A stretch of 64,000 nucleotides of DNA, taken from Syntrophales bacterium. Lineage in GTDB: Bacteria; Desulfobacterota; Syntrophia; Syntrophales; UBA8958. The stretch spans positions 24,212 to 88,211 of the forward strand of contig JAOAFE010000002.1 in NCBI GenBank assembly GCA_026416455.1, in the 5' to 3' direction. Made by a program: the position numbers and the translations under genes. Within the stretch, counting starts at the first letter, position 1; every line of letters starts with the position of its first letter. The notes under the pieces were generated by a model. It worked only from the letters and a program-made list of their open reading frames with translations. It searched no databases and was not told where the DNA came from. Below, in pieces: positions 1,628-53,465 of the stretch.

Positions 1628-2107
1628 TCATTTTGAAAGGCGAGTCCTGAGGTTGGAGAGACTTTTGAAGTGGCCTCGCTCTTCTTCTATTACTTGATCC
1701 ACGGTAGGGTGATCTTTTACTGGGACGAAACATTTAATTTCTTGATAGTAGAGGATGGAATCAAGTTCACGCCGAATGGCAAAATCTAAAGCTTCTTTTA
1801 CGTCTTTTATTTTGCCTAGCTCATTTTCCAGCATGTCTTTTTTGAAAATGATGTTACCGTCTACGTAGTTATGCAGATAAGCGGCGTATTCTCCATCGTA
1901 AGTTTCGGGCAGTCTTTCCTTTTCCAAGCTAGCAAAGATGCGTTCAAATAACTTGCGATGATTGGCTTCCGCTTGAGCTAGTTCTTGGAAGAGTCTCTTT
2001 ACTTCTTCGTCTCTTGCCAACTGTACGGCGAAGCGATAGAAGTTCTCCCCATTTTCTTCGATTCTCATGGCAAATTCCATAATGTCCGTCGCTTTGAACG
2101 TACTCAT
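1628..2107 (-). CDS. ferritin-like diiron protein (rubrerythrin family, no rubredoxin domain)
   Basis: The ORF track gives 1628..2122. I prefer the internal ATG (MSTFKATD...) because GAGGAGG lies 6 nt upstream on the minus strand. Two ExxH motifs (AEANH, EERGH) sit in a ~160-aa helical protein. Confidence 0.6.
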   Translation of the reverse strand: MSTFKATDIMEFAMRIEENGENFYRFAVQLARDEEVKRLFQELAQAEANHRKLFERIFASLEKERLPETYDGEYAAYLHNYVDGNIIFKKDMLENELGKIKDVKEALDFAIRRELDSILYYQEIKCFVPVKDHPTVDQVIEEERGHFKSLSNLRTRLSK

Positions 2108-2204
2108 TTTTTTCCTCCTCAAATTTTATGGTTTCTATATAGGGTAAAAGGGGCCTTCGTCTCAATATAATTTTTGTCCCTGTTGTAACCAAGCTAAATG
2201 AGGT

Positions 2205-2990
2205 ATGAAAAAGACTATGAAATATTGGTTCAAAATTCTTTTAATTGTAACTGCTTGTTCATGTTTTGGTATGGACTCCTCATCTGCCTCCGAATGGTTG
2301 GCTTCGGGACGGTGGACAAACGACTTTGACGTTGGTCCTGCTATTTCCAGAACGCAGCATTTTTATGAAATTTTACCGCGCAGGTATTTTCCCGATATAG
2401 ACCGTTGGGAGGATATCACAAGGCTTCACGATGGGGGCATTAAATTTTCCTGGGATGAGAATTTCATGTTTCGTCTAAGCGTCAAGGGTATCAGTGGATT
2501 AAGCATAAGCAAGAGGGAAAATCTCAATTTTGCCTTTCATGTTAATTATCTCTTCGATCGTGGTAAGGTCTGGATGCGAGAGCACAAGGAGGTTTCTTCT
2601 CTGGATTTTTCTCCTGGAAAAAGTGAGGAAAACGCACGTTTTTTTTCTTATCTTTTGCCTGCCGTTGACAGGAAAAACAAAAGACTTTTTACGCTCGTCC
2701 TTCAGTATAGGGCGGGAAAAACAGACCTCACAAGAGAGAACCGGGAAGTACTCAAAGGTCTTTTTCAATATTTGAAGAGGAATCGAGACGTATTTATTGT
2801 GATTACGGGAACGGTTAATGATATCTTTAAAAAGAGAGAAGAAAATTTAATTCTCTATATGATCCGAGTCGGCAAGGTAAGAAAAGAGATGATTATCGAG
2901 GAGGGGAAGGGTGACGGCAATGGTTATCCTTGGGTAGAGGTAAAACTGCAGGAGGAGAGAATATGTAAATTCTCCAAGGAAATTAACTAG
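2205..2990 (+). CDS. hypothetical lipoprotein / secreted protein, possibly with a degenerate OmpA-like C-terminal region
   Basis: 261-aa ORF. The N-terminus MKKTMKYWFKILLIVTAC has a positive n-region, a hydrophobic core and a lipobox-like VTAC. I recognise no family. The C-terminal FIVITGTVND...LILYMIRVGKVRKEMI loosely recalls OmpA_C. The gene looks more AT-rich than its neighbours by eye. Confidence 0.5.
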   Translation: MKKTMKYWFKILLIVTACSCFGMDSSSASEWLASGRWTNDFDVGPAISRTQHFYEILPRRYFPDIDRWEDITRLHDGGIKFSWDENFMFRLSVKGISGLSISKRENLNFAFHVNYLFDRGKVWMREHKEVSSLDFSPGKSEENARFFSYLLPAVDRKNKRLFTLVLQYRAGKTDLTRENREVLKGLFQYLKRNRDVFIVITGTVNDIFKKREENLILYMIRVGKVRKEMIIEEGKGDGNGYPWVEVKLQEERICKFSKEIN

Positions 2991-3065
2991 TAAATTCTGG
3001 ATATATTTTTTGTTCAGTGATAATAATGTGTATCAGAATTCACAGCAAATGAGGAGGACATTTCC

Positions 3066-3665
3066 ATGGCGCAGCGGAGGCGTAGTCAACTCGATGTTAA
3101 AGAAAGGCAGATGAATATAGTTAAAAAGGCGGCTCGGTTGTTTTTCAAAAAAGGGTATGCCCAAACGACCATGAGGGACATAGCACGGGCAACCAAAATC
3201 AATTTGGGAAATCTCTACAATTACATAGAGAGTAAAGAAGATATTTTATGTCACATTTTCTATATGTACCATGAGCCCTTTGCCGAATGGATTGAAAAAG
3301 AAAAGATAATGGAAATAGAAGATCCTCGGGTACAGCTGGAGAAGAGTGTGGAGAAGGTAGTGGAGATGATCAATAATTACCGTAAAGAAGTACTTCTCAT
3401 GTACCGGGAAACGAGGGTATTGCCGCCTAAGTTCATGAAGAGAGTGTTGGCAACGGAAGGATCGGTGGTTAGCTTCTTTGAGGGCATTTTAAAAAGAGGT
3501 ATGGATCAAGGAGTCTTTAAGATTAAAGACCCTTTTTTTTCTGCCAATATGTTAGTCTTCCAGATGTCCCTGTATGCCCTAAGAAGTTGGAATTTAAAAA
3601 GATACTCGCAGGAAGAAATTAAGAAACTCATGGTAGAATCAATCATGGCGAGCGTTCTTCCATGA
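3066..3665 (+). CDS. TetR/AcrR family transcriptional regulator
   Basis: The N-terminal HTH KKAARLFFKKGYAQTTMRDIARATKINLGNLYNYIESKEDIL is the TetR_N signature. Length is ~200 aa and GAGGAGG lies upstream. Confidence 0.85.
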   Translation: MAQRRRSQLDVKERQMNIVKKAARLFFKKGYAQTTMRDIARATKINLGNLYNYIESKEDILCHIFYMYHEPFAEWIEKEKIMEIEDPRVQLEKSVEKVVEMINNYRKEVLLMYRETRVLPPKFMKRVLATEGSVVSFFEGILKRGMDQGVFKIKDPFFSANMLVFQMSLYALRSWNLKRYSQEEIKKLMVESIMASVLP

Positions 3666-3728
3666 TCAATCAAATTCAAGAAAATTATTGACAAAATCTC
3701 TCTATGCAATTAGGAAAATCCGCTTCTT

Positions 3729-4754
3729 ATGAACGTGCCTAGGGATTCGAAAGTGAAGATAAGTCGGAAGCGGGCGATCGAAATTATCGATCGATTCCAG
3801 GCAGCCCATGTGCTCGTGGTTGGAGATATCATGGTAGATCATTTCATCTGGGGTAAAGTTGCCCGTATATCCCCGGAAGCGCCCGTACCGGTCGTCGAAG
3901 TGCAGAAAGATAATATCATGCTCGGTGGATCGGCCAACGTTATGAATAATATCAAATCTTTGGATGGTCAGGTTTACGGGGTGGGAATTGTCGGTGCGGA
4001 CGAGATGGGAAAGAGGCTGATTGCCGAACTAAAAAAGAAAAACATAGATACGGAGGGAATTTTTGTTGAGACCGGTAGACCTACGACAATAAAGACGAGA
4101 ATTGTTGCCCACGGTCAACAGGTGGTAAGGTTTGATCGAGAAAGTAGGAAAGAAGTGAATCGGCATATGACAGAACGGATGCTGGCCCGCGTCGAGTCTC
4201 TCTTGCCTTTCATTCGGGTAATCGTCATCTCCGATTACAATAAAGGAGTGGTCACCAAGGAGCTGGTCACGGGTCTTACAAGATTGGCTGCTAATAGGGA
4301 TGTGATGATCTGTGTGGATCCCAAAAAAACGGATTTTTCCGTTTATCAGGGTGTTCACGTTATCACGCCCAATCATCACGAAGCGGAGAGGGCAATAGGA
4401 ATTGAGATCTCAAATCGGCGTTCTTTAAATAGGGTAGGAGAAGAATTGATCAGGCGTTATGCCTTTAAGGCCGCCTTGATAACCAGGGGCGAGCAGGGCA
4501 TGAGCCTGTTCGAGCGAGACACCACTATTATACACACGGAATTGCCAGCCGATGCGAAAGAAGTCTTCGATGTGACAGGAGCCGGAGATACAGCTATTGG
4601 TACATTTGCCCTGGCGGTGGCTTCGGGAGCAACTCTTAGAGAAGCAGCGTTTCTTGCAAACAAAGCGGCAGGAGTAGTTGTGGGTAAGACGGGAACGGCG
4701 ACGGTAACTCGCAGAGAGCTGAAGCGAGTGCTCAGAGATTATGGATCAGCTTAA
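3729..4754 (+). CDS. hldA: D-glycero-beta-D-manno-heptose-7-phosphate kinase (RfaE domain I type, PfkB family)
   Basis: 341 aa. VLVVGDIMVDHFIWGKVARISPEAPVPVV and the C-terminal DVTGAGDT...GKTGTATV match stand-alone RfaE kinase domains. No adenylyltransferase domain is fused. Confidence 0.75.
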   Translation: MNVPRDSKVKISRKRAIEIIDRFQAAHVLVVGDIMVDHFIWGKVARISPEAPVPVVEVQKDNIMLGGSANVMNNIKSLDGQVYGVGIVGADEMGKRLIAELKKKNIDTEGIFVETGRPTTIKTRIVAHGQQVVRFDRESRKEVNRHMTERMLARVESLLPFIRVIVISDYNKGVVTKELVTGLTRLAANRDVMICVDPKKTDFSVYQGVHVITPNHHEAERAIGIEISNRRSLNRVGEELIRRYAFKAALITRGEQGMSLFERDTTIIHTELPADAKEVFDVTGAGDTAIGTFALAVASGATLREAAFLANKAAGVVVGKTGTATVTRRELKRVLRDYGSA

Positions 4755-9933: not shown

Positions 9934-10335
9934 ATGATTATCTTTGATTTAGAATGTGAGCGAGGACATAAATTCGAAGGCTGGTTTAAAGACCTGGCCG
10001 CCTTCGAAGAGCAAGAAAAGAAGAAACTTGTCTCCTGTCCCGTATGTGGCAGTGTAGATACCCGACGTCTGCCCTCCACTGTGACGGTCATGAAAAAAGA
10101 ACGCTCTTCATCACCGGAGATTTCTCCCCTCAAGTATCTGGCTATGATCCACGATTATATTGACCGACATTTTGAAGACGTGGGCGAGAGATTTGCTGAG
10201 GTGGCCCTAAAGATTCATTATGGTGAAGAAGAAAGGCGTAATATAAAAGGGACAACCACGCCAGAGGAAGAAGAAACATTAAGAGAGGAAGGGGTGGAAT
10301 TCATAAAAATTCCCCATGTTCGCTTTGATAGTTGA
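9934..10335 (+). CDS. DUF1178 family zinc-ribbon protein
   Basis: 133 aa. MIIFDLECERGHKFEGWFKD...LVSCPVCGS matches the DUF1178 N-terminal signature (C..H...CxxC). It ends 6 nt before the next ORF. Confidence 0.65.
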   Translation: MIIFDLECERGHKFEGWFKDLAAFEEQEKKKLVSCPVCGSVDTRRLPSTVTVMKKERSSSPEISPLKYLAMIHDYIDRHFEDVGERFAEVALKIHYGEEERRNIKGTTTPEEEETLREEGVEFIKIPHVRFDS

Positions 10336-10341
10336 GAGGCC

Positions 10342-12663
10342 ATGCAGCGATTGTCTTACAAGAGCATTTTGGAAGCCATTGGCCACACCCCGTTGATTGA
10401 AATTCGTCGTCTGAATCCTAACAAACAGGTAAAAATCCTCGCTAAAGTGGAAAGTTTTAATCCTGGTGGCTCCATCAAGGACCGTGCGGCCCTCTACATG
10501 ATTGAGGGTGCAGAGAAAAGGGGCGAATTGAAGCCTGGTATGACCATTCTGGAAGCCACAAGTGGTAACACCGGTATTGGTCTGGCTTTGGTAGCGGCGG
10601 CAAAGGGTTATCATCTCTGCCTTACCATGTCGGAGGGGGTAAGCGAGGAGCGAAAGAAGATTCTTCGCGCCTTGGGAGCTGAACTTATTTTTACGCCTGC
10701 CCATTTGGGCACAGATGGGGCCATTGAAGTCGCTTATCGTCTATGGCGGGAAAATCCGGGTAAATATTTCTGTACGGATCAATTCAACAATCCCGATAAT
10801 GTGAGGGCTCATTACGAGGGTACGGCAGAAGAAATATGGGAGCAGACGGGAGGAGAAGTAGACTATGTGGTCGTCGCCCTAGGTACCACAGGAACGGCTA
10901 TGGGCCTGTCACAAAAGCTAAAGGAGTATAATCCTAAAATCAAGATCATCGGAGTGGAACCCTATCTGAAACATCGCATTCAGGGCTTAAAAAACATGAA
11001 GGAGTCTTATCGACCCGGCATTTATGACCGCAAGAGGCTAGATGAGAAGATAAATATCCTCGATGAAGATGCCTTTGCTATGGCGAGAAGACTCGTTAGA
11101 GAAGAGGGGCTCTTTGTGGGTATGAGTTCGGGAGCGGCTATGTTCGTAGCCGCCCAAAAGGCCAGAGAAATAGAAAAAGGGGTAATCGTAGTGATCTTTC
11201 CCGACGGAGGAGAAAGGTATTTAAGCACCGATCTCTTCGTTCAAGAAGAAGTATGCCCCCTTTCTCTGTACAATGCCCTCACCCGTCGTAAAGAAAAGTT
11301 ACGTCCCCGGCGGCCGGGAGAAATATTGATTCATACTTGTGGACCGACGGTCCACGATGTGCCTCATTTGGGCAGTTATCGCCGATTTGTCGTCTCCGAC
11401 CTATTGAGAAGGTACCTGCTATACCGGGGATACAAGGTGACAAATCTAACAAACATAATCGATCTTGCCGATCGGACGATTCAAGGGGCGTTCAAAGAGG
11501 GTATCGATATAAAGAACTATGCGGACCGTTACGTGAAGGTGTTCCTCTCCGATTTGGAGAAACTCAACGTCGTATTAGACTCCAATTATCCAAGGGCGAG
11601 TGAGCATGTGGAAGACATGCTAAAATTGGTGGAGAAGCTGGAAGAAAAGGGATTCGCTTATGAAAAGCTCCACTCCGTGTATTTTGACATCTCCAAACTG
11701 GATACCTATGGATGTCTGTCCAACATTGACCTGCGCCAAGTGCGACTGGATAAAACCGTTGATTTTGACGATTATGAAAAAGATAGCCCCGTCGATTTTA
11801 CCCTCCTCAAAAGGGCGACCCTCCCCGAACTGAAACAGGGCGTTTACTATTCAACCAAGTGGGGGTCAGTAAGACCCAGCTGGCATCTAGAATGTGCAGC
11901 TATTGCCCTTAAGTATTTAGGAGATTGCTTCGATATCCATGTTGGGGGGGAGGATATAATCTTTCCCCATTGCGAAAATGTTTTGGCCATAGGAGAGGCC
12001 CTCACTGGCAAAAACCCAGCTGGTCATTGGATAAATACGGCACTCGTCATGGTAGACGGGAAGAAGATGTCTCGTTCCCTAAACAATACTGTGACTTTGG
12101 ACGAGTTGGAGGCAATGGGTTTTTCTGGCCGTGAGGTCAGATTTTTTCTCCTATCAACCCACTACCGGAAACCTCTCAATTATTCCATATCGACACTCAA
12201 GATGGTTCAGAATACCTTGAACCGAATAGATCACTTCGTAAGGAGGATCTTTTTTCTGCCTCCCGAGGAAAAAGGTACCGACGTTGAGCAGTGGCTATAT
12301 GAATTACGCCAGGACTTCCATGAAGCCATGGATGACGATCTAAACGTAGCAGGTGCCATGGCGGCCTTCTTCACCTTTATGAAGAAGACAAATAAGTTGC
12401 TTAACGAAGGTGGGATTTCTAGAACGGAAAAAGAAAGGGTGCTGGAGTTTCTCGGGTCTATGCATCAGGTCTTAGGCATTCTAGATTTTCCACGGGAGGA
12501 TGAAGGGGGAGAAATTGAACAATTGATTACCTTAAGAGAGGCGTTGAGAAAGGAAAAAAAGTGGGAGGCAGCGGATGAAATCAGGGAGAAATTGAGGCAG
12601 ATGGGCATCGAAGTTATAGATGCACCTCAAGGTACCCTTTGGCGAAGGGTAAAAAATTCTTGA
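10342..12663 (+). CDS. cysS: fusion protein: PLP-dependent cysteine synthase (CysM/CysK family, aa ~1-300) joined to cysteine--tRNA ligase-like enzyme (aa ~307-773)
   Basis: One uninterrupted 773-aa ORF. The N-terminal half has SFNPGGSIKDR, SGNTG, GTTGT and MSSGAA. The C-terminal half starts LSLYNALTRRKEKL...TCGPTVHD and has WHLECAA, KMSRS, DDDLN and GIEVIDAPQGTLWRR, collinear with E. coli CysRS. Confidence 0.85.
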   Translation: MQRLSYKSILEAIGHTPLIEIRRLNPNKQVKILAKVESFNPGGSIKDRAALYMIEGAEKRGELKPGMTILEATSGNTGIGLALVAAAKGYHLCLTMSEGVSEERKKILRALGAELIFTPAHLGTDGAIEVAYRLWRENPGKYFCTDQFNNPDNVRAHYEGTAEEIWEQTGGEVDYVVVALGTTGTAMGLSQKLKEYNPKIKIIGVEPYLKHRIQGLKNMKESYRPGIYDRKRLDEKINILDEDAFAMARRLVREEGLFVGMSSGAAMFVAAQKAREIEKGVIVVIFPDGGERYLSTDLFVQEEVCPLSLYNALTRRKEKLRPRRPGEILIHTCGPTVHDVPHLGSYRRFVVSDLLRRYLLYRGYKVTNLTNIIDLADRTIQGAFKEGIDIKNYADRYVKVFLSDLEKLNVVLDSNYPRASEHVEDMLKLVEKLEEKGFAYEKLHSVYFDISKLDTYGCLSNIDLRQVRLDKTVDFDDYEKDSPVDFTLLKRATLPELKQGVYYSTKWGSVRPSWHLECAAIALKYLGDCFDIHVGGEDIIFPHCENVLAIGEALTGKNPAGHWINTALVMVDGKKMSRSLNNTVTLDELEAMGFSGREVRFFLLSTHYRKPLNYSISTLKMVQNTLNRIDHFVRRIFFLPPEEKGTDVEQWLYELRQDFHEAMDDDLNVAGAMAAFFTFMKKTNKLLNEGGISRTEKERVLEFLGSMHQVLGILDFPREDEGGEIEQLITLREALRKEKKWEAADEIREKLRQMGIEVIDAPQGTLWRRVKNS

Positions 12664-45674: not shown

Positions 45675-47510
45675 CTAGGGATACAACTGATAGGCCTCCT
45701 TTTCCATACCGAGGGAGAGGAGTTTTTCTTTCTTGGGCTTTCCCGTTTCCCAATCCCAATCCCGGTAGGAGTAGTACTCTCTGAGCATGATTTCCAGATC
45801 AGGTGTCTTTCCCGCCGAGCTTCCCTCTTCAAGAGCCTTCAGACATATTTTTGGTAGTTTATCTTCCGCCCTCGTCAGTCCACGTCGATTATTTATTACT
45901 CTTTTAATTGTAATCGAACGTTCTCCTGCCGTCAAAAGTACCTGGGGATCATAACCCCAACCGGTGATGGCATTTATCGCCTGACAGATGAAAGTAGGTG
46001 TATAAGGAGCGAATTTGCACAGGGTCAATGAATCAAAGAGGTCTTTGAAATTTTGGTATTTAGCCACCATTTCTGCTTTGCCTTCCGAGGCAAAACGGTC
46101 ACCGGGCAGGATGTTGTATTCTGCAATGAAGCTGCCCAGTTCGATGTTGTAGTAATCACCCTTGAGATGGCAGGCTCCTCTGGGTCCTGTGGCATAAGAT
46201 AATGCCATTCCAGAAAAGGCGCGTGGATCGTGCATAGCAACTTCCATTCCTTTGACCTGCGCTGCTTCTTCTGGGTCGCGTCCGAAATGCTCCGCCATCT
46301 TTAACGTCCCCTGAGATATGAGTTTCCCGATCCCCTCCTGACGGATGCTCATCTCTACGAGTTTTACTATTGTGGGACCATCACCCCATTTGATTTCCAT
46401 TCCTGCTTCCTCTTTGGTGAGGATCCCCAGCTCGTAAAGATACATAGCATAAGCAATCGATACGCCTAGGGAAATTGTGTCTATGCCGTGGGCGTTGCAG
46501 AGATAGTTGGCCTCGATGATGGAGTCGAAGTCGAAATTCATACATAGGGGCCCGAAGGCGATGGTGGTCTCATACTCTGGTCCGTCTACTGAATCGATGC
46601 CCGGTCGGAAGTTTTTAACCTCCCGGCCACAGCCGATCGGGCAGCCCACGCAGGCGTAATTTTCCACTACATACTTCTGACGCAAGGCTTGGCCCGTAAG
46701 CTTAGAGGCAGGGAAAACACTTTTTTGGAAGTACTTTACGGGAACGTCGCTTACTGCCATACCTAAATCAGTGTACATGAGCGTTCCATACTCGCGGAAA
46801 GCGGGGGCTACGATGTTTTGTTTGATAGCCGTCATGGCCTCTTTTGTTAGCTCTTTTATCTGTTCGGGTTCGGCGAGCTCAGTTTTCATTTTTCCTGTAA
46901 CGACGATGGCCTTAAGTTTTTTTGACCCCATGAGGGCCCCAAGACCACAGCGCCCTGCGGTTCTTCCTGCATCGTTCATGATGCCTGCCGTTTTAGCGAG
47001 GTTTTCTCCTGCAGGGCCGATTACAGCCATCCCCAGACCGGGTTGATCAATGGCATGTCGGAGACGATCCTGGGCTTCGTATATGTTTCTTCCCCAAATG
47101 TCAGAGGCGTCTCGGAGTTCTGCCTTTCCATTGTCAAGAAAGAGATAAACTGGTTCGTTTGATCGACCGATAATAAAGATGCCATCGTAGCCCGATTGTT
47201 TAAGGCGGAAAGGAAACGCTCCACCGCTCGTTGCCTCTCCCCAGTAACCCGTAAGAGGGGAGAGTCCACCTACAGCATACCTGCTCACCATGGGAATGGC
47301 ACTACCCGTAAGAGGTCCGGTGGCGAAAATGAGAGGACTCTCCGGCGCCAGGGGATCCATCTCTGGGGTAATATGGTCGTTGGTGAGCTTCGCTGCTAGT
47401 GTGGCGCCCCCTACGTACTGCTTAAAAAGCTCTTCCGAAATGGGCATATCTTCCAACTTTTTGGCCGTAAGATCTACACGAAGAAAACGTCCGTGGATTC
47501 CTTTCATCAT
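45675..47510 (-). CDS. aor: aldehyde:ferredoxin oxidoreductase (tungstopterin AOR family)
   Basis: 611 aa. The N-terminus MKGIHGRFLRVDLTAKKLE is typical of AOR_N. Also present are a Cys motif CVGCPIGCGR, and EYETTIAFG and GACHLKGD blocks. Confidence 0.9.
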   Translation of the reverse strand: MMKGIHGRFLRVDLTAKKLEDMPISEELFKQYVGGATLAAKLTNDHITPEMDPLAPESPLIFATGPLTGSAIPMVSRYAVGGLSPLTGYWGEATSGGAFPFRLKQSGYDGIFIIGRSNEPVYLFLDNGKAELRDASDIWGRNIYEAQDRLRHAIDQPGLGMAVIGPAGENLAKTAGIMNDAGRTAGRCGLGALMGSKKLKAIVVTGKMKTELAEPEQIKELTKEAMTAIKQNIVAPAFREYGTLMYTDLGMAVSDVPVKYFQKSVFPASKLTGQALRQKYVVENYACVGCPIGCGREVKNFRPGIDSVDGPEYETTIAFGPLCMNFDFDSIIEANYLCNAHGIDTISLGVSIAYAMYLYELGILTKEEAGMEIKWGDGPTIVKLVEMSIRQEGIGKLISQGTLKMAEHFGRDPEEAAQVKGMEVAMHDPRAFSGMALSYATGPRGACHLKGDYYNIELGSFIAEYNILPGDRFASEGKAEMVAKYQNFKDLFDSLTLCKFAPYTPTFICQAINAITGWGYDPQVLLTAGERSITIKRVINNRRGLTRAEDKLPKICLKALEEGSSAGKTPDLEIMLREYYSYRDWDWETGKPKKEKLLSLGMEKEAYQLYP

Positions 47511-47525: not shown

Positions 47526-48797
47526 TTAAAAATCTATGTCTTTGCCTTCGTAGGCATACCGGAGAATCTTTTCACACTGGGCTTCTGTTATCGGGCGTGG
47601 TGAAAATATCGTGTCTATATCTTCCACACTGTATTTAACCAACAGGGGCATCTGACGCTCGAATTCGTCCTTTGGGATCCCCAAATCTTTCAGATTCAGG
47701 GGTACGTCCAGTGTTTTTAAGAATTCCTTCACGGTTTTTATTAAATTGTCGAAGCTTTCTTCTTCCGTTTTCCCTTCGATGCGCAAGGCGTGACATATTT
47801 CTAGGTATCTGTCACATACGGGTTTATAAAACTGAAACGAATAGGGGATGAACATGCCTACGGCCAGGCCATGATGCACCTTGAAAATAGAACCTATAGA
47901 GTGTCCTAAACTATGGGTTAGAGCACAACCACTTTGCCCGAACCCGACTCCAGCCGCACTCGCCGCCATGAGCATACGATATCTTGCTTCGCGGTCTTTT
48001 CCGTTTTTGTAGGCCCGCGGTAGGTATTTAAAAACCATTTTAATTGCCGCGATGCTCATGGCTTGGGTGAATTCATTGCCGGCTGGTGTGACGGCCGCAT
48101 CCATGGCATGGGCAAGTACATCTAGTCCTGTGCCGACGGTAAGTTTAGGAGGCATGGAAACGGTGAATTCCGGATACAGGATGGCTACATCTGGTAAGAG
48201 GTCGGCATTGGCAATCGGAATTTTTCGATGCGCTTGCGTGTCGTGGAGAACTGAGACCGCCGTACATTCGGAACCGGTCCCACTGGTGGTGGGAACGGCG
48301 ACGAAGAAGGCCTTTTTCCTCAGTCCCAACAGGACAAGAGGACTAACCTGCGATCCGAGGTCCGTAATATCTGGTCGTTCGTAAAGAATCCAAGCGGCCT
48401 TTGCTCCATCAATGACGGAGCCACCTCCGACGGCAAAGATCACATCTGGTTCGAAGGCCGTCATGGATGCGGCACATTCCTTAACATTGTCTATGGGTAC
48501 TTCAGGAAGTGCCTTCGGCCAAATTTCCGTCGTGAAACCGTTGGTGGAAAAGTAGCCCGCCGTTTTTTGGGCATATTTTTCGCTAATTTCATCCGCCACA
48601 AAGAAAGCCCTTTTTTTAGGGGCATGGGCACCGATGAAATCCGCCGTGGAAGGCCCGATTACCATCCCCTCGGGAAAGACATTAAACCCCATGATGAAAG
48701 CTGGTGTTTTAAAAATGCTAGTCATACCTTTGATGGCATCGGCCAAAGCCAAGGGTAAAATGGCCTTAATCCCCGGGTCTTCAAACCAGTAGGTCAT
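47526..48797 (-). CDS. iron-containing alcohol dehydrogenase
   Basis: 423 aa. GGGSVIDGAKA, metal-site His residues (LDVLAHAMDA, CALTHSLGHSIG), and AAGGAGGA upstream on the minus strand. Confidence 0.88.
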   Translation of the reverse strand: MTYWFEDPGIKAILPLALADAIKGMTSIFKTPAFIMGFNVFPEGMVIGPSTADFIGAHAPKKRAFFVADEISEKYAQKTAGYFSTNGFTTEIWPKALPEVPIDNVKECAASMTAFEPDVIFAVGGGSVIDGAKAAWILYERPDITDLGSQVSPLVLLGLRKKAFFVAVPTTSGTGSECTAVSVLHDTQAHRKIPIANADLLPDVAILYPEFTVSMPPKLTVGTGLDVLAHAMDAAVTPAGNEFTQAMSIAAIKMVFKYLPRAYKNGKDREARYRMLMAASAAGVGFGQSGCALTHSLGHSIGSIFKVHHGLAVGMFIPYSFQFYKPVCDRYLEICHALRIEGKTEEESFDNLIKTVKEFLKTLDVPLNLKDLGIPKDEFERQMPLLVKYSVEDIDTIFSPRPITEAQCEKILRYAYEGKDIDF

Positions 48798-48963
48798 GCC
48801 TCATTCCTCCTTTCTTTTATTCTTTTATCTATTATCCCATGAACAGGGGGTTGAAATAAAGTTTTTTTAAAGTGTTTAATAGGTCGGCTCATGGTGCTTG
48901 CCCGCTTAGTAATCAGTCGCTTTTAGCCAGTATCTAGGCACCTCTCTAAATTGTGGAGACTTG

Positions 48964-49362
48964 CTATTTACCTCTATGGGATTGCCCTATTACCCGGTCG
49001 AACTCTTTTTTATTTTTAGGCCACCAATAGTAGAGGAAAGGCCCTTTTGTTTCTTCGTTTTCCACTGTTTCAACAGAACAGGCCATCAGGGCTATCACGG
49101 CACCATAGTGGAGAACGGCCTCCCAGTTAATCATTCTCTTAAATTGAGATTGATAGGCTTTATTAAACTTAGGAGTGCAAAGAGCAGGCAAACTGAAAAC
49201 GGAGGCAACGGTAGCCAGATTACACATTAGTTTTTTGGAATCTTTTAAAATATGTTGTATCCAATCAAATTTTGCTTGGTCGATGAGGACGAAACCCCCC
49301 TTGTAACCTAGTGTTCTCGCCTGTTCGATTACAAGTGCCGTTGTTGCTTTTGGCTTTTTCAT
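48964..49362 (-). CDS. hypothetical protein (no recognisable family)
   Basis: 132-aa ORF with two moderately hydrophobic stretches (LATVASVFSLPAL, HYGAVIALMA). There is no obvious SD. It is favoured over the opposite-strand 89-aa ORF, whose composition is less protein-like. Confidence 0.4.
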   Translation of the reverse strand: MKKPKATTALVIEQARTLGYKGGFVLIDQAKFDWIQHILKDSKKLMCNLATVASVFSLPALCTPKFNKAYQSQFKRMINWEAVLHYGAVIALMACSVETVENEETKGPFLYYWWPKNKKEFDRVIGQSHRGK

Positions 49363-49477
49363 TTTAATATCTTTTTTGATTTTTTACAAAAACTTTAGTG
49401 ATATCAAAATATTTCTGGTGTTTTAGTGAAAAAAATGTTTTACTGTGAAACACATTTTTCGCTCTGGAGGTTCATTG

Positions 49478-51676
49478 ATGAGAAAAGTTAATAAAGCCTT
49501 TAATGTCTTAATGGCCATGTTTCCCAGTTATGAATCATGGCTCATGTTCGTCGGTAGGGAAGAAAACACGGAGGTATTAAATGACTTGATAGATTTTGCC
49601 AGAAGAGAGGGACTACTAACTTTGGGAACGAAGGAAGAGCTGGAAGCCTTGATAAATCAGTTTCCGGGGGTGAGAAGGGTAGAAATGAGGCATTTGCCGG
49701 TCGATTTTGGCGATTTGTTGGAAAGACGCAAGGAATTCTTGAATTTGTCTGTTTCTCTTCGTTCTTGGGTCAAAAGAATAAATGCCCTACTCGATGAACA
49801 TCGTATCCGCCTGCCTAGAATTAGTAATACGATGATCACAAGATTAAAAAAGGAGGCGGCCGATACGGCTTACAAACAGGACGTCTTGAGGAGTATTGCG
49901 TTCTGGATTGGATACGATCGTCCCCAATTGGTCTCGACATGGAATTATGAGGTATTGAGAAAAATATGTGAGATAGGAATAAATGCGGGAAGTAAAGCCT
50001 TTACTCACGGCGTCCGAATTGGTTTTTCTCTCAGTGGGAGGGGAGAAGTTGTAGATCACGAGGTGGTAGGTTGGTTACGCAAAACTCTGAAAGACTATTT
50101 GGAGAGCTCTAAGGACCCATATCTGCATGCGGGTAAGGTTAAAGGCCATGACATTACCACTCTTTATGTAGATTTCCCACGAGAAGAGGGATCTGAATAT
50201 CCGTCTTCATATCGTTATTGTTTGCGCTCGGCCATGTCTTTAGCCCATCAGATAGCGGTGCGATGGTCACTTTCACCTTACTATTCGGAAAAGAGGTTTC
50301 TCGCGATCGGGCTCGCGGGAGGTGACTTTTCGATGGTGGATACACAACTGTTGCCCATTTTGAGTGTTCGCATCCCCGGAGATCCAATAATTCGAATTAC
50401 GGATTTCATCAGACAATGTCTTCTGATAAACGATGTGCGGGTGATCCTTAGCGAAAGGCCTTATGAAGTTTCCTTGTTCAATGGAGAGGTGCTTTTCGTC
50501 TGGTGGGTCCATGCCTTTTGGAACACAATTTATTTCGATTTTATTCCTGAACTTCTTTCCGATCCTGTGTGTGCGACAACGGAAGAGGCCAAATTCAGAT
50601 TAAACCGTCTACTCTTTTACCCTGAAGAGGTGCAGGATAAGAGACCCAACGCCTTAAGCATTTTTTTCCGCTTTCCCTCTAATTCACTTTTAGGTCAGGA
50701 AATTGCTAAAACCTTATACTTTCGGCGCCGCTTCTGGGAAGCCTTGGAAGTTATGAGAGTTGTGGTGGGATTAAATCCCGATGATCCAACAGCTAGAACG
50801 TTTCGCATGGCTATTTATCGTCATCTGGCCCTTTCGGCACCTTCTTGGAAGGCTGCTAATGCGATGTTAAGATTTGCCCTCCATGAGGCTCGTTATGTGG
50901 AAGATCATTGCTCCTATTTGGGTGAGGACTATTACTGTGAATATGCGGGAGTTTATTTGGAAAAGGCGATCTTGGCCTTAAAATTTTGCCGGCAAGATAG
51001 GGAAGGGGATGCCTCCGCATGGCAAGCCATTGTGTTTGATGCCATTCGGGAAGCGGCACTTCTATTTAATAAAGGAATGGCTATCTCTCCCTCGGGTGTT
51101 CGTTCGACTTTTCTCCTCCACCTGACTTTAATCTTACGTGCTGTGCTCAATGACAACCCAAATGTCTTTACCGACGCCCACTGTCCTCTCTATGGTAGAA
51201 GGTCAGTAATCAGACGTGTAACGGAAGAGGTAATGAAACAGGGAGGCTTTGTCCGGGATGACATACCAGGATTCGATACCAATAGATTTGCGGAAGATAG
51301 GATGATTACCAATTTCGAAGTTCACGATGCCGCCGTTGCCTTGGAAGCATATCGACCTACCACCTACTTCTGCCATGCCGTAGCTCTGTGGGATTTTACC
51401 GTGGTCCGTAGAATAGGAACGGCCCGAAGGGTGCACAAGATATTGGGGGAGGCAAAAAGAAGGGCAGAGGCCATGATGAAAAAAGACGTTTGTATTCGTT
51501 CCTATACTCGTTTGTACGAGGAAATCTTACCCGTGCCGGAGTTTGTCTCCCATATGGATAGATGTATTGCCCTTATCGAATCTCGGGTTGGGGAGGGTCT
51601 TTTTAAAGGAAACGACGACGATGTGATTCCAGAAAGAGATGATTACGAACCCCTTCTTATGACCCTTAACTTTTAG
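49478..51676 (+). CDS. large hypothetical regulator-like protein: XRE-type HTH, degenerate nucleotidyl-cyclase-like middle region, helical-repeat (TPR-like) C-terminal half
   Basis: Start set at the ATG 7 nt after GGAGG (ORF track start is GTG 49445). The HTH-like region is FGDLLERRKEFLNLSVSLRSW...ISNTMITRLKKE...LRSIAFWIGYD. The middle has VRIGFSLSG / ITTLYVDFP / RFLAIGLAGGDF / GDPIIRITDFIRQ in the strand order of class III cyclase folds. The C-terminal ~350 aa is helix-rich. Confidence 0.55.
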   Translation: MRKVNKAFNVLMAMFPSYESWLMFVGREENTEVLNDLIDFARREGLLTLGTKEELEALINQFPGVRRVEMRHLPVDFGDLLERRKEFLNLSVSLRSWVKRINALLDEHRIRLPRISNTMITRLKKEAADTAYKQDVLRSIAFWIGYDRPQLVSTWNYEVLRKICEIGINAGSKAFTHGVRIGFSLSGRGEVVDHEVVGWLRKTLKDYLESSKDPYLHAGKVKGHDITTLYVDFPREEGSEYPSSYRYCLRSAMSLAHQIAVRWSLSPYYSEKRFLAIGLAGGDFSMVDTQLLPILSVRIPGDPIIRITDFIRQCLLINDVRVILSERPYEVSLFNGEVLFVWWVHAFWNTIYFDFIPELLSDPVCATTEEAKFRLNRLLFYPEEVQDKRPNALSIFFRFPSNSLLGQEIAKTLYFRRRFWEALEVMRVVVGLNPDDPTARTFRMAIYRHLALSAPSWKAANAMLRFALHEARYVEDHCSYLGEDYYCEYAGVYLEKAILALKFCRQDREGDASAWQAIVFDAIREAALLFNKGMAISPSGVRSTFLLHLTLILRAVLNDNPNVFTDAHCPLYGRRSVIRRVTEEVMKQGGFVRDDIPGFDTNRFAEDRMITNFEVHDAAVALEAYRPTTYFCHAVALWDFTVVRRIGTARRVHKILGEAKRRAEAMMKKDVCIRSYTRLYEEILPVPEFVSHMDRCIALIESRVGEGLFKGNDDDVIPERDDYEPLLMTLNF

Positions 51677-52253: not shown

Positions 52254-53465
52254 TCAGCGACGTAAAAGGCGTTTTGAAAGGCGCTCGATGCGGTGGGCGA
52301 TTTCTCTTGACGGAGATACATTCTGCGCTCTTTTGGCATAATCAAGGGCTGCTTCGATATTGCGAGCTCGATGTTCATAGTATTTGGCCAGTTCTATCAG
52401 GGCGAAGGTATCGTAAGGGTTTCTAACTATTATCTGTTTCCAGAGGGAGACGGCCTCTTCCCAGCAACCTAATCTGCGGTATATGATGGAAAGTTCCCGG
52501 GAGGCCGATAGCCAAGATAGTTGGTCGATCTCGCAACTTCTCAAAGATTCAAAAACACGCACTGCGTGGGAAAAAGCACATCTATCGGACCAGATGCGGC
52601 CAGCCTGGATTTTATCTCCAGGAAAAATATCCGATGTCATTGAGTCTGGGTCAATAAGCTCGGTTAACTTGGCGGCTAGGGTAACGAGGGAAAGAACGTC
52701 CAACCGGTTATGTTCAAAAACCCGGGCTATAATTCGGGCGTCGCGCCTTTTCAGCCAGGCGAAATAGAGATGGGGAATTTCATAGCCCGGTACGTCTCCT
52801 TCTCTCGTGAGGCCCAGAACAACTTGCTCTAAAGTGGAAAGGCTACGGTCGTTGAGTCGATGTTTAAAAATACGCCTGGCGGGGTAGAGTAAGTCGGCAT
52901 GAGGCATATTTTCCAGCAAGGGAGGGAGGCGATTTAGAATAAAGCGCGTGTTTAGAAGATTGACGTCGAATGCCTTACCGTTGAAGGTGATGAGAAATTT
53001 CTTTTCCCTTAAGAATTCCATTATGTAATGGAGAGCTGCCCTTTCTTCGTCGTAGTCCCGAAGGAAAATTTGGTAAAGGCTAAATCCGTTTTTTTCAAAC
53101 CAACCGAGTCCGATAAGGAAGGGTAAAGTGCCTGTACCACCTACCAAACCGGTTGTTTCCGTATCGAGAAAGATCCCGTCTTCGATCCGATACTTCAGAA
53201 TTGAGGGGTCGTTGGTCAAAATGGAAAGGAGATGTGTGTCTATGGGTGTACAATCCCTTAAGACATAGCATCCGTGGCGAAAGGAACCAGGAAAAGAATA
53301 ACGAGTCAGGAAAAAACAACCTTTTTCGTTTGATATCTCTTCTCCTGGGACGAGCTCTTCAATTGAAAGGCCCGTTTTTGCTTCGAGTTGCTTATTGGTT
53401 CTCTCCGTTGCACCGGCCTTTACTCTATATCGAGTGAGCAGGGACAGACGGTCACGAATATTCAT
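52254..53465 (-). CDS. YprB-like RNase H-fold exonuclease domain protein with C-terminal TPR repeats (COG3359 architecture)
   Basis: 403 aa. IFLDTETTGL (DEDD-type first motif), ITFNGKAFDVNLL and HNRLDVLSL. The C-terminal helical repeats end in ...YYEHRARNIEAALDYAKRA. Confidence 0.7.
   Translation of the reverse strand: MNIRDRLSLLTRYRVKAGATERTNKQLEAKTGLSIEELVPGEEISNEKGCFFLTRYSFPGSFRHGCYVLRDCTPIDTHLLSILTNDPSILKYRIEDGIFLDTETTGLVGGTGTLPFLIGLGWFEKNGFSLYQIFLRDYDEERAALHYIMEFLREKKFLITFNGKAFDVNLLNTRFILNRLPPLLENMPHADLLYPARRIFKHRLNDRSLSTLEQVVLGLTREGDVPGYEIPHLYFAWLKRRDARIIARVFEHNRLDVLSLVTLAAKLTELIDPDSMTSDIFPGDKIQAGRIWSDRCAFSHAVRVFESLRSCEIDQLSWLSASRELSIIYRRLGCWEEAVSLWKQIIVRNPYDTFALIELAKYYEHRARNIEAALDYAKRAQNVSPSREIAHRIERLSKRLLRR

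Follow-up and report, generated by a model that had tools for sequence, protein, structure and literature searches.

Known regulators of adhE are the redox repressor Rex, whose box reads TTGTGAA-N4-TTCACAA, and, in E. coli, Cra, Fis and NarL. The one-component RNPP regulators (PlcR, NprR, PrgX, Rgg and ComR), which act at nearby promoters, join an N-terminal DNA-binding segment of the HTH_3 type to a large sensor of tetratricopeptide repeat (TPR) type and sense peptides in Firmicutes. Class III nucleotidyl cyclase domains (PF00211; sGC beta1, Ma1120, CyaB and Rv1625c are examples) share a beta-alpha-alpha-beta-beta-alpha-beta core with a C-terminal beta hairpin and act as dimers with their sites at the interface; of the two metal-binding aspartates, canonical members carry the first at the end of strand beta1 and the second in the beta2-beta3 turn, and the sGC beta subunit contributes only part of a shared active site. 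M. tuberculosis Rv0386 is an example of the actinobacterial regulators in which a cyclase homology domain (CHD) is combined with other modules, as CHD plus LuxR or as CHD-ATPase-TPR-LuxR. CHD plus LuxR and TPR plus LuxR architectures have been listed (PMC3466318). Here we analyze a 64,000-nucleotide stretch of DNA from a Syntrophales bacterium (contig JAOAFE010000002.1, positions 24,212 to 88,211 of the forward strand; hereafter the window), in which the gene for a 732-residue protein is divergent from genes for an iron-containing alcohol dehydrogenase (Fe-ADH) and an aldehyde:ferredoxin oxidoreductase (AOR). We conclude that this protein is probably a transcription factor for the adjacent alcohol/aldehyde dehydrogenase genes, a reading that draws on five computational observations: conservation of the protein across a family, fold assignments, a divergent gene context, an operator block, and covariation between that block and the protein.

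The protein differs from each of the described systems. Its predicted target (adhE or alcohol/aldehyde dehydrogenase genes) is that of Rex and of Cra, Fis and NarL, but the proteins are unrelated, and the proposed operator, an array containing GTTTTA-N3-TAAAAC, differs from the Rex box. The actinobacterial CHD plus LuxR regulators, with or without ATPase and TPR parts, are the nearest architectural analogues, given that they too place a cyclase-homology domain, helical repeats and a DNA-binding domain in one polypeptide. In these proteins, however, the cyclase is a bona fide one that Pfam detects, a P-loop ATPase is usually present and the LuxR helix-turn-helix (HTH) is C-terminal, whereas the protein described here has a putative, unclassified DNA-binding segment at its N-terminus, no ATPase, and a cyclase fold that is undetectable by sequence. 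Class III cyclases share with its middle domain the overall fold and the order of strands and helices over ~190 columns; in contrast, there is no sequence or profile similarity, strand beta1 lacks an acidic residue, and the domain sits between putative DNA-binding and TPR-like domains. The RNPP proteins are alike in domain order, but HTH_3 is not detected here, a cyclase-fold domain is added, and the hosts are Thermodesulfobacteriota and Halomonadaceae. Judged by its sequence, the protein is not a member of the XRE, RNPP or STAND families, whose defining features were looked for and not found. It appears to belong to a new transcription factor family that combines an unclassified DNA-binding domain with a cyclase-fold module and would act like a divergently encoded one-component pathway regulator. 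The features discussed below are the following, in coordinates of the window.

49478..51676, plus strand: gene of the 732-residue putative transcription factor (open reading frame (ORF); homologs align full-length from its ATG)
49739..49921, plus strand: best-conserved part of the N-terminal helical domain, a putative DNA-binding segment (residues 88-148; conservation and AlphaFold2 (AF2) helices)
49826-49852, plus strand: proposed recognition helix (residues 117-125), with predicted specificity residues S116/N117
50006..50545, plus strand: class III nucleotidyl-cyclase-fold domain (residues 177-356; Foldseek against the PDB)
50546..51607, plus strand: all-helical TPR-like C-terminal domain (residues 357-710; AF2 secondary structure and Foldseek)
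49393..49468, plus strand: conserved operator-like block (33-bit matrix match; equivalent upstream in most related loci)
49419-49425: half-site B, TGTTTTA
49436-49442: half-site C, TGTTTTA
49446-49452: half-site D, TGAAACA
49437-49451: C/D palindrome GTTTTA-N3-TGAAAC (GTTTTACTGTGAAAC)
49379..49407, minus strand: candidate leftward sigma-70 promoter, with -35 TTGATA (49407-49402), a 17-nt spacer and -10 AAAAAT (49384-49379)
48909..49362, minus strand: remnant of a Peripla_BP_6 solute-binding-protein gene (132-residue ORF 48964-49362 plus a frameshifted tail at ~48909-48965)
47526..48797, minus strand: Fe-ADH, predicted regulatory target (Pfam Fe-ADH and ADH_Fe_C)
45675..47510, minus strand: AOR, predicted target in the same operon as Fe-ADH (Pfam AFOR_N and AFOR_C)

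An initial annotation, made by reading the DNA alone, had described the two ORFs and the lengths of the spacer between them as we find them, and all five peptide strings that it quoted occur in the translation of the large ORF. The spacer is 115 nt long when counted to the ATG, which is preceded at a distance of 7 nt by a GGAGG ribosome-binding site (49466-49470), or 82 nt when counted to an in-frame GTG at 49445, an alternative start that would give a protein of 743 residues. The same annotation called the large protein an orphan, and this description does not survive a search of the protein collection, which returned at least 220 homolog clusters at E <= 1e-3. Among the 120 matches listed, the proteins are ~720-760 residues long and align over 97-100% of the query at 42-79% identity; the best match is an identical protein from a Syntrophales metagenome-assembled genome, and the hosts are Syntrophales, Smithellaceae, Desulfobacteraceae, Desulfatitalea, Desulfatibacillum and Syntrophobacteraceae. 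A Pfam domain is on record for none of these listed homologs, the 732-residue protein itself has no significant match in Pfam, NCBIfam or PDB sequences, and family members, for which neither Pfam nor NCBIfam has a model, are currently annotated just as "hypothetical" or "TPR repeat protein". An alignment of 35 members has a mean column identity of 62% and contains long invariant stretches. Scanning species-representative genomes gave 114 matches, from which 79 loci (numbered with the prefix L) were retained, including those of the cultured Desulfatibacillum alkenivorans, Desulfatitalea alkaliphila and Desulfosudis oleivorans and of two Halomonadaceae isolates, the latter on long contigs. Moreover, an exhaustive search of 1.84 billion representatives with a hidden Markov model (HMM) of the middle domain found only 111 proteins, nearly all of 700-790 residues and with the domain at residues ~170-370. 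These searches describe a small, closed family of fixed architecture. Because PADLOC and PHROGs gave zero matches for either protein of the divergent pair, we do not propose a defence or phage reading.

The gene context of the family was counted in the 77 loci for which upstream sequence was retained. In 55 of them AdhE, Fe-ADH (with or without AOR), or AOR is encoded upstream on the opposite strand: a complete AdhE-type fusion of Aldedh and Fe-ADH in 34 loci, a partial fusion in six, Fe-ADH plus AOR in ten, Fe-ADH alone in three, and an AOR cut by the contig end in two. The dehydrogenase is the immediate neighbour in most of the 55 loci, with intervening genes in a few, and both Halomonadaceae loci have the AdhE arrangement. 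Catabolic or transport genes are the divergent neighbours in most of the other 22 loci: an AMP-binding acyl-CoA ligase in nine and, elsewhere, a Peripla_BP_4/ABC-transporter operon, an FAD oxidoreductase, a carboxylesterase, or others. Paralogs placed head-to-head with differing catabolic genes are the classical signature of a family of pathway-specific transcription factors, which is how we would interpret this pattern.

Several Smithella and Smithellaceae genomes carry two or more paralogs that differ in their neighbouring targets and in their half-site classes, examples being L010 (genes at 2381-4609 and 10001-12226, within 5.4 kb), OY820932 (L030/L064), CAXXVL01 (L039/L068) and CAZJMX01 (L005/L053); this arrangement implies a small regulatory network whose members come from a single family. 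The two Halomonadaceae hosts of the regulator-operator-adhE cassette, both gammaproteobacterial, are Vreelandella nigrificans (L072) and Halomonas eurihalina (L076). Their AdhE is 69% identical to that of Smithella and their operator block is recognisable at 34-36 bits, which suggests that the whole regulatory unit was transferred horizontally.

The spacers between AdhE and regulator genes are unalignable with the exception of a block of ~76 nt, which aligns without gaps in 30 of the 34 AdhE loci and in the window. Its consensus,.TaAAAcaa.tGTCAA...tt....gTGTTTtA.taAAA.Ta.cGTTTTA..gTaAAACA......tGTTTt, holds five TGTTTYA / TRAAACA half-sites, two of which make up the palindrome GTTTTA-N3-TAAAAC. 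A position weight matrix (PWM) of 66 bits, built from the 30 AdhE loci, finds one match above 15 bits in the whole window, namely at 49393-49468; the score of 33.1 bits compares with a maximum of 6.7 in 5000 shuffles of the spacer. In loci outside the training set, including ones with Fe-ADH plus AOR or ABC-transporter neighbours, the PWM gives single strong matches 60-170 nt upstream of the gene. Extra copies of the block stand before distal operons composed of a small ORF, Fe-ADH and AOR (L031 and L038) and before genes for AMP-binding ligases (L017 and L057). The subclade to which the window belongs has a shorter form of the block, at a distance of ~25 nt from the start codon. A search of the spacer against Rfam found no RNA family.

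The GTCAA within the block, which belongs to a -35-like TTGACA next to the half-sites, is the reverse complement of the sigma-70 -35 element TTGAC, and TATAAA-like hexamers occur 17 nt further to the left. If GTCAA does belong to a leftward promoter, arithmetic from the alignment puts the centres of the half-sites at about -24, -49, -66, -76 and -88. The -35 hexamer of the candidate promoter in the window coincides with this family-conserved GTCAA. No terminator-like site was found in 48700-49600. Transcription from the leftward promoter would pass through the remnant into the Fe-ADH and AOR genes. The 8-nt repeats that the initial annotation had proposed as operator sites are both present, the direct repeat TTTAGTGA at 49394-49401 and 49422-49429 and the inverted repeat AAAAATGT-N13-ACATTTTT at 49431-49459. 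Repeats of this length are at about chance level in a 115-nt spacer of these base frequencies, where by our own estimate ~0.8 direct and ~0.4 inverted repeats are expected. The inverted repeat gains meaning because it is the outer flank of the family-conserved C/D palindrome, and to this extent the operator proposal stands; for the direct repeat it stands only in part, the second copy of TTTAGTGA overlapping half-site B.

The sequence of the half-sites varies with the protein. Members with [ST]116-N117, in about 55 loci including the window, are accompanied by GTTT[TC]A / T[AG]AAAC half-sites; members with D116-K117 by GTCTTA / TAAGAC in 4 of 4 loci; and members with T116-H117 together with I/M121 and I/M/L134 by GG[TA]TTA, GA[AT]TTA / TAAACC in 7 loci, with identical block spacing. 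All half-sites in one block change together, and they track class-specific substitutions in a segment (residues 112-139, LP.V[ST]NSMLTRLKKE..DT.YKQNVLRS) that is otherwise near-invariant in the family. Moreover, the block at the distal Fe-ADH-AOR operon of L031 is of the GTCTTA type, whereas the local paralog, like the block beside it, belongs to the GTTTTA type, implying that half-site class is not merely a property of the lineage of a locus. It is mainly on the strength of this covariation that we infer binding of the block by the protein itself, with contacts made by the helix of residues 117-125. A conserved cis-element found at the gene and at its predicted targets, with a specificity that appears to co-vary with the protein, is what one would look for in a one-component regulator. 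Together with the gene context, these data lend strong support to the earlier suggestion of a regulator with operators in the spacer.

An AF2 model of the full-length protein, computed on the family alignment (predicted local distance difference test (pLDDT) 86.5; predicted template modelling score (pTM) 0.73), has three parts: a helical region (residues 1-166), an alpha/beta domain (residues 177-347), and an all-helical region (residues 357-710). The N-terminal segment contains helices at residues 94-107, 117-125 and 131-147. It had been described as an XRE-like HTH, an assignment that finds no backing in our searches. No HTH family of Pfam matches any of 35 members at E <= 1; residues 76-167 alone have no Pfam match even at E <= 10, a search in which the scores of six XRE domains used as controls lie between 1e-12 and 1e-18; and hhalign gives a probability of 0.1% for the N-terminal profile against an XRE control alignment. 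In addition, this profile retrieves nothing meaningful from PDB sequences, fold searches with the full-length model return no HTH proteins and are dominated by TPR and cyclase matches, and the viral fold library yields only TPR, sensor and cyclase-type matches for the full-length model. A match to SAP_new25/SAP at residues 36-62 (E 3.4e-4, below the gathering score; 3 of 35 members), on which we do not rely, may be noise or may point to another DNA-contacting motif within residues 1-65.

The middle domain had been read as cyclase-like with non-conserved catalytic residues. The former is supported at the level of the fold, by Foldseek, and not by sequence. When modelled alone (residues 170-362; pLDDT 69, pTM 0.72), the domain gives 21 Foldseek matches at E <= 1e-3, almost all of the top 47 being cyclase catalytic domains; the best E value is 4.5e-5 and TM scores are 0.45-0.62 over ~190 aligned columns, for a domain model of pLDDT 69. 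Matches include sGC beta, which is among the closest, Ma1120, CyaB, Cya2, sAC and Pycsar cyclases, and cyclases are also hit by the full-length model. At the sequence level, the middle-domain profile has 0 matches among PDB sequences, the exhaustive HMM search reaches no canonical cyclase, no cyclase family of Pfam matches any of 35 members, a regular-expression search for canonical cyclases in the DNA retrieved for the analysis finds none, and hhalign against the C1 and C2 domains of AC5, AC8 and AC9 gives a probability of 0.2%. Because hhalign shows no similarity to these enzymes, catalytic residues cannot be mapped by sequence. Strand beta1 (GVRIGFALYSRG, residues 178-189) contains no aspartate or glutamate in any of 75 full-length members, so that the canonical first metal-binding aspartate appears to be missing, in line with the second earlier claim; this mapping is by topology and not by structural alignment. 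An H/Y224-D225 pair at the beta2-beta3 turn (aspartate in 70 of 75) could, again by topology, match the second aspartate, T/S308 would stand in place of the transition-state asparagine at the start of helix alpha4, and R312 (72 of 75) may match the arginine there. The domain is nevertheless the best conserved of the separately aligned regions, with a mean column identity of 80% in alignment A2, and polar residues that are invariant or nearly so in the 75 members are R180, R188, D193, H194, D225, D232, E236, R273, D302, R306, R312, N318, D319, E330 and E337. It is probably a non-canonical pseudo-cyclase with a conserved functional surface.

For the C-terminal half, the helical repeats noted earlier are TPR-like: Foldseek matches IFIT5, PEX5, OGT and designed TPRs (E ~1e-3, probability 1.0, low TM), and sub-threshold TPR matches to Pfam occur in 12 of 35 members. 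The 732-residue protein contains no Walker A motif, and no NTPase domain (AAA, NB-ARC or NACHT) recurs in the 35 members, the one AAA-related entry being a single sub-threshold Cdc6_lid match in one of them.

We propose that the N-terminal helical domain binds the array of 6-7-bp half-sites through the helix at residues 117-125, with residues 116 and 117 contacting bases, and that the protein would occupy the array as a dimer or higher oligomer. The array would lie between the regulator gene and the divergent sigma-70 promoter, from which the protein would control the leftward alcohol/aldehyde operon (Fe-ADH plus AOR here; AdhE in most relatives). It would probably also autoregulate its own gene, and paralogs would control acyl-CoA ligase genes. 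The cyclase-fold domain could serve as a dimer interface and ligand pocket, that is, as a pseudo-enzyme sensor, and the TPR-like domain could provide oligomerisation or higher-order assembly, or else a second site for a ligand or partner. Sites upstream of the -35 element are compatible with activation, and a site in the -35/-10 spacer and the block abutting the regulator start codon in the window are compatible with repression. The nature of the targets (AdhE, ADH/AOR and acyl-CoA ligases) prompts the speculation that the effector is an alcohol, an aldehyde or a nucleotide-containing metabolite.

The small ORF on the other side of the spacer, previously listed as an unknown gene, is a truncated relative of a known one. 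L004 is the closest relative in the genome collection (regulator 78% identical) and has at the same position a 452-residue ORF, whose product is a Peripla_BP_6 protein (PF13458, E 7e-43). When this ORF was used as a tblastn query, its residues 268-432 aligned to the window ORF with an E value of 4e-53 and an internal gap of 45 residues; the last 20 residues match in another frame at ~48909-48965, and the first 267, signal peptide included, have no counterpart in the window. Identity to the C-terminal lobe of the L004 protein is 73% (88 of 120 aligned residues). Compared with Peripla_BP_6 proteins, whose C-terminal lobe it matches at the same genomic position, the window copy thus lacks the signal peptide and N-terminal lobe (267 residues), carries the 45-residue internal deletion and a frameshifted tail, and has no Shine-Dalgarno sequence upstream of its ATG. 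The 132-residue ORF itself has no match in Pfam or NCBIfam. On these alignments it is a decaying remnant and not a partner gene, and the annotation of a spurious small gene is corrected to that of a binding-protein remnant.

Four relatives keep the order AOR/Fe-ADH, regulator, rubrerythrin, RNaseH/TPR genes and GatB/GatA, and synteny on the far side extends to LptD in L083 and L085 and to GatC in L083, L084 and L085. An intact binding-protein gene is present in L004, L083 and L084, whereas L085 has no trace of one, its Fe-ADH and regulator genes being immediate divergent neighbours; the window therefore represents an intermediate in gene loss. Over 117 codons the window and L004 differ at 24, 15 and 68 first, second and third positions, a third-position bias that fits recent truncation and would also allow residual constraint. 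The same leftward promoter may once have served the intact solute-binding-protein gene.

Peripla_BP_6 genes with a signal peptide and without adjacent permease genes lie between regulator and dehydrogenase in L001, L004, L005, L007, L016, L083 and L084, and even between close relatives the gene may be intact, decayed (window) or absent (L085); its product may be a transport accessory or an extracytoplasmic sensor. In other loci two different small conserved ORFs, neither with a Pfam match, are the first gene after the operator block and precede Fe-ADH-AOR; their products are ~135-139 residues (MAKF.TQEW.D.Y.EEIN.S.AYEE.A.TWEGDFYFI...) and ~117-133 residues long. They occur in L011, L026, L036 and L080, between block and Fe-ADH, and in L031 (559-960) and L038 (3958-4311); in the window and in L004 the same slot is held by the binding-protein gene or its remnant.

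Decay of the small gene also bears on base composition. GC content in the window is lowest at 49-50 kb (0.397), owing to the AT-rich spacer (GC 0.25) and to the small ORF, whose GC is 0.42. The codon usage of the large gene had been judged more AT-rich than that of its neighbours; its GC content and GC at third codon positions (GC3), both 0.453, lie within the window range, however (0.482 +/- 0.024 and 0.505 +/- 0.037 for 26 long ORFs; z = -1.2 and -1.4), and three other ORFs are as low or lower. Only the spacer and the remnant are AT-rich, and the composition of the large gene is ordinary. The window has a second GC dip (0.40-0.42) at 2001-4000, where the ORF 2205-2990 (GC 0.406, GC3 0.431) falls below the locus under study. 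On the other flank, a rubrerythrin-like gene begins 43 nt 3' of the large ORF, as reported earlier and confirmed by Pfam (Rubrerythrin, E 9.5e-12). Its suggested operon membership or functional link is not borne out, this neighbour being conserved solely in the closest syntenic subclade, and we reject rubrerythrin as an operon partner across the family. Between the rubrerythrin gene and gatB lies a gene (52254-53465, minus strand; same position in L004 and L083-L085) for a 403-residue protein with an exonuclease-like RNase_H_2 domain (PF13482, E 5e-37) and C-terminal TPRs, which has a weak PADLOC match to a CRISPR-associated DEDDh model.

Several findings weigh against the conclusion that the protein is a transcription factor. 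No DNA-binding family can be assigned to the N-terminal domain by Pfam, PDB-profile, hhalign (against XRE) or fold searches. The covariation is partly confounded by shared ancestry, the block being inherited beside the gene, and involves three clades only. The block of the window and of its subclade is a degenerate one that scores 20-33 bits, adjoins the start codon and has the two flanking half-sites of the consensus, A and E, out of register. The promoter hexamers are weak matches to consensus, the scan returning 4 sites against 2.6 expected, and a literature search found the family nowhere described. The first two of these points would also suit a protein that is an enzyme (an unusual nucleotidyl cyclase, say) or a signalling scaffold such as a TPR adaptor and is simply co-regulated with the dehydrogenase genes, while an unlinked transcription factor binds the block; the invariant polar residues D193, H194, D225, D232, E236, R273, D302, R306, R312, N318 and D319 could then form an active site. 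We nevertheless consider such a protein unlikely, given that the half-sites of a block change jointly and match class substitutions in a near-invariant helix, that the distal-operon block of L031 is of another class than the local paralog, that paralogs divergent from different catabolic genes are the usual pattern of pathway-specific regulators, and that beta1 is without the acidic residue needed for canonical two-metal catalysis.

The order of parts, with a helical DNA-binding segment at the N-terminus and a TPR-like domain after it, and the signal-peptide-bearing solute-binding protein sometimes encoded alongside, recall a quorum-sensing regulator of the RNPP (PlcR/NprR/Rgg) type, in which the TPR domain would bind a re-imported peptide and the cyclase-like domain would be a structural insert only. 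This is improbable: HTH_3 is not detected, a highly conserved cyclase-fold domain of ~180 residues separates the two parts, the targets are catabolic enzymes, and the binding protein is dispensable, being lost in L085 and decayed in the window. No small peptide gene was noticed beside the regulator, where none was systematically sought, and that RNPP proteins are a Firmicutes family also counts against this explanation. Large size, sensor-like helical repeats and a regulatory context had earlier suggested an NTP-dependent signal-transduction regulator in the style of STAND, MalT or AfsR. With no Walker A motif, no AAA, NB-ARC or NACHT match in 35 members, and a central domain of cyclase rather than P-loop fold, this proposal is left with very little credence, and we regard it as refuted by absence of the defining NTPase domain. 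We find it just as implausible that the locus was acquired horizontally as an island, or is a defence element, in which the small ORF would be a partner gene. The drop in GC at 49-50 kb (0.397) would fit foreign DNA, and the regulator-adhE pair in distant Halomonadaceae suggests a mobile cassette; the GC and GC3 of the gene are inside the window range, however, PADLOC and PHROG matches are lacking, the gene order from AOR/Fe-ADH to GatB/GatA is the same in four relatives, and the small ORF is a gene remnant. We have rejected a foreign origin on composition and synteny.

If the 732-residue protein is the transcription factor that we propose, a broader and more tentative reading is that it might be the founding member of a new family of one-component regulators, with a pseudo-cyclase as ligand-sensing dimer core, an unclassified DNA-binding domain, and a recognition code (SN for GTTTTA, DK for GTCTTA and TH for GGTTTA). 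In Thermodesulfobacteriota that are syntrophic or degrade alkanes, such a family might govern genes for ethanol/aldehyde metabolism and fatty-acid activation, and a nucleotide-containing metabolite, for instance NAD(H), a CoA ester or acyl-AMP, may be what it senses. Compared with an orphan gene, the locus is more interesting in that it belongs to a conserved, unnamed family of probable regulators with a readable operator and set of targets, and more ordinary in that gene decay accounts for the small ORF and the AT-rich pocket, the large gene being native and syntenic. A nucleotidyl-cyclase fold has apparently been recruited here as a non-catalytic module within a transcription factor, which adds to the cases of this kind. 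Regulation of alcohol and aldehyde metabolism (AdhE, Fe-ADH and tungsten AOR) is essentially uncharted in syntrophic and hydrocarbon-degrading Deltaproteobacteria, and the locus offers a testable triplet of regulator, operator and target, with a ~76-bp operator, a predicted recognition helix, three natural specificity variants, and homologs of the protein in cultivable strains of Halomonas, Desulfatibacillum and Desulfatitalea, the Halomonadaceae being genetically tractable hosts.

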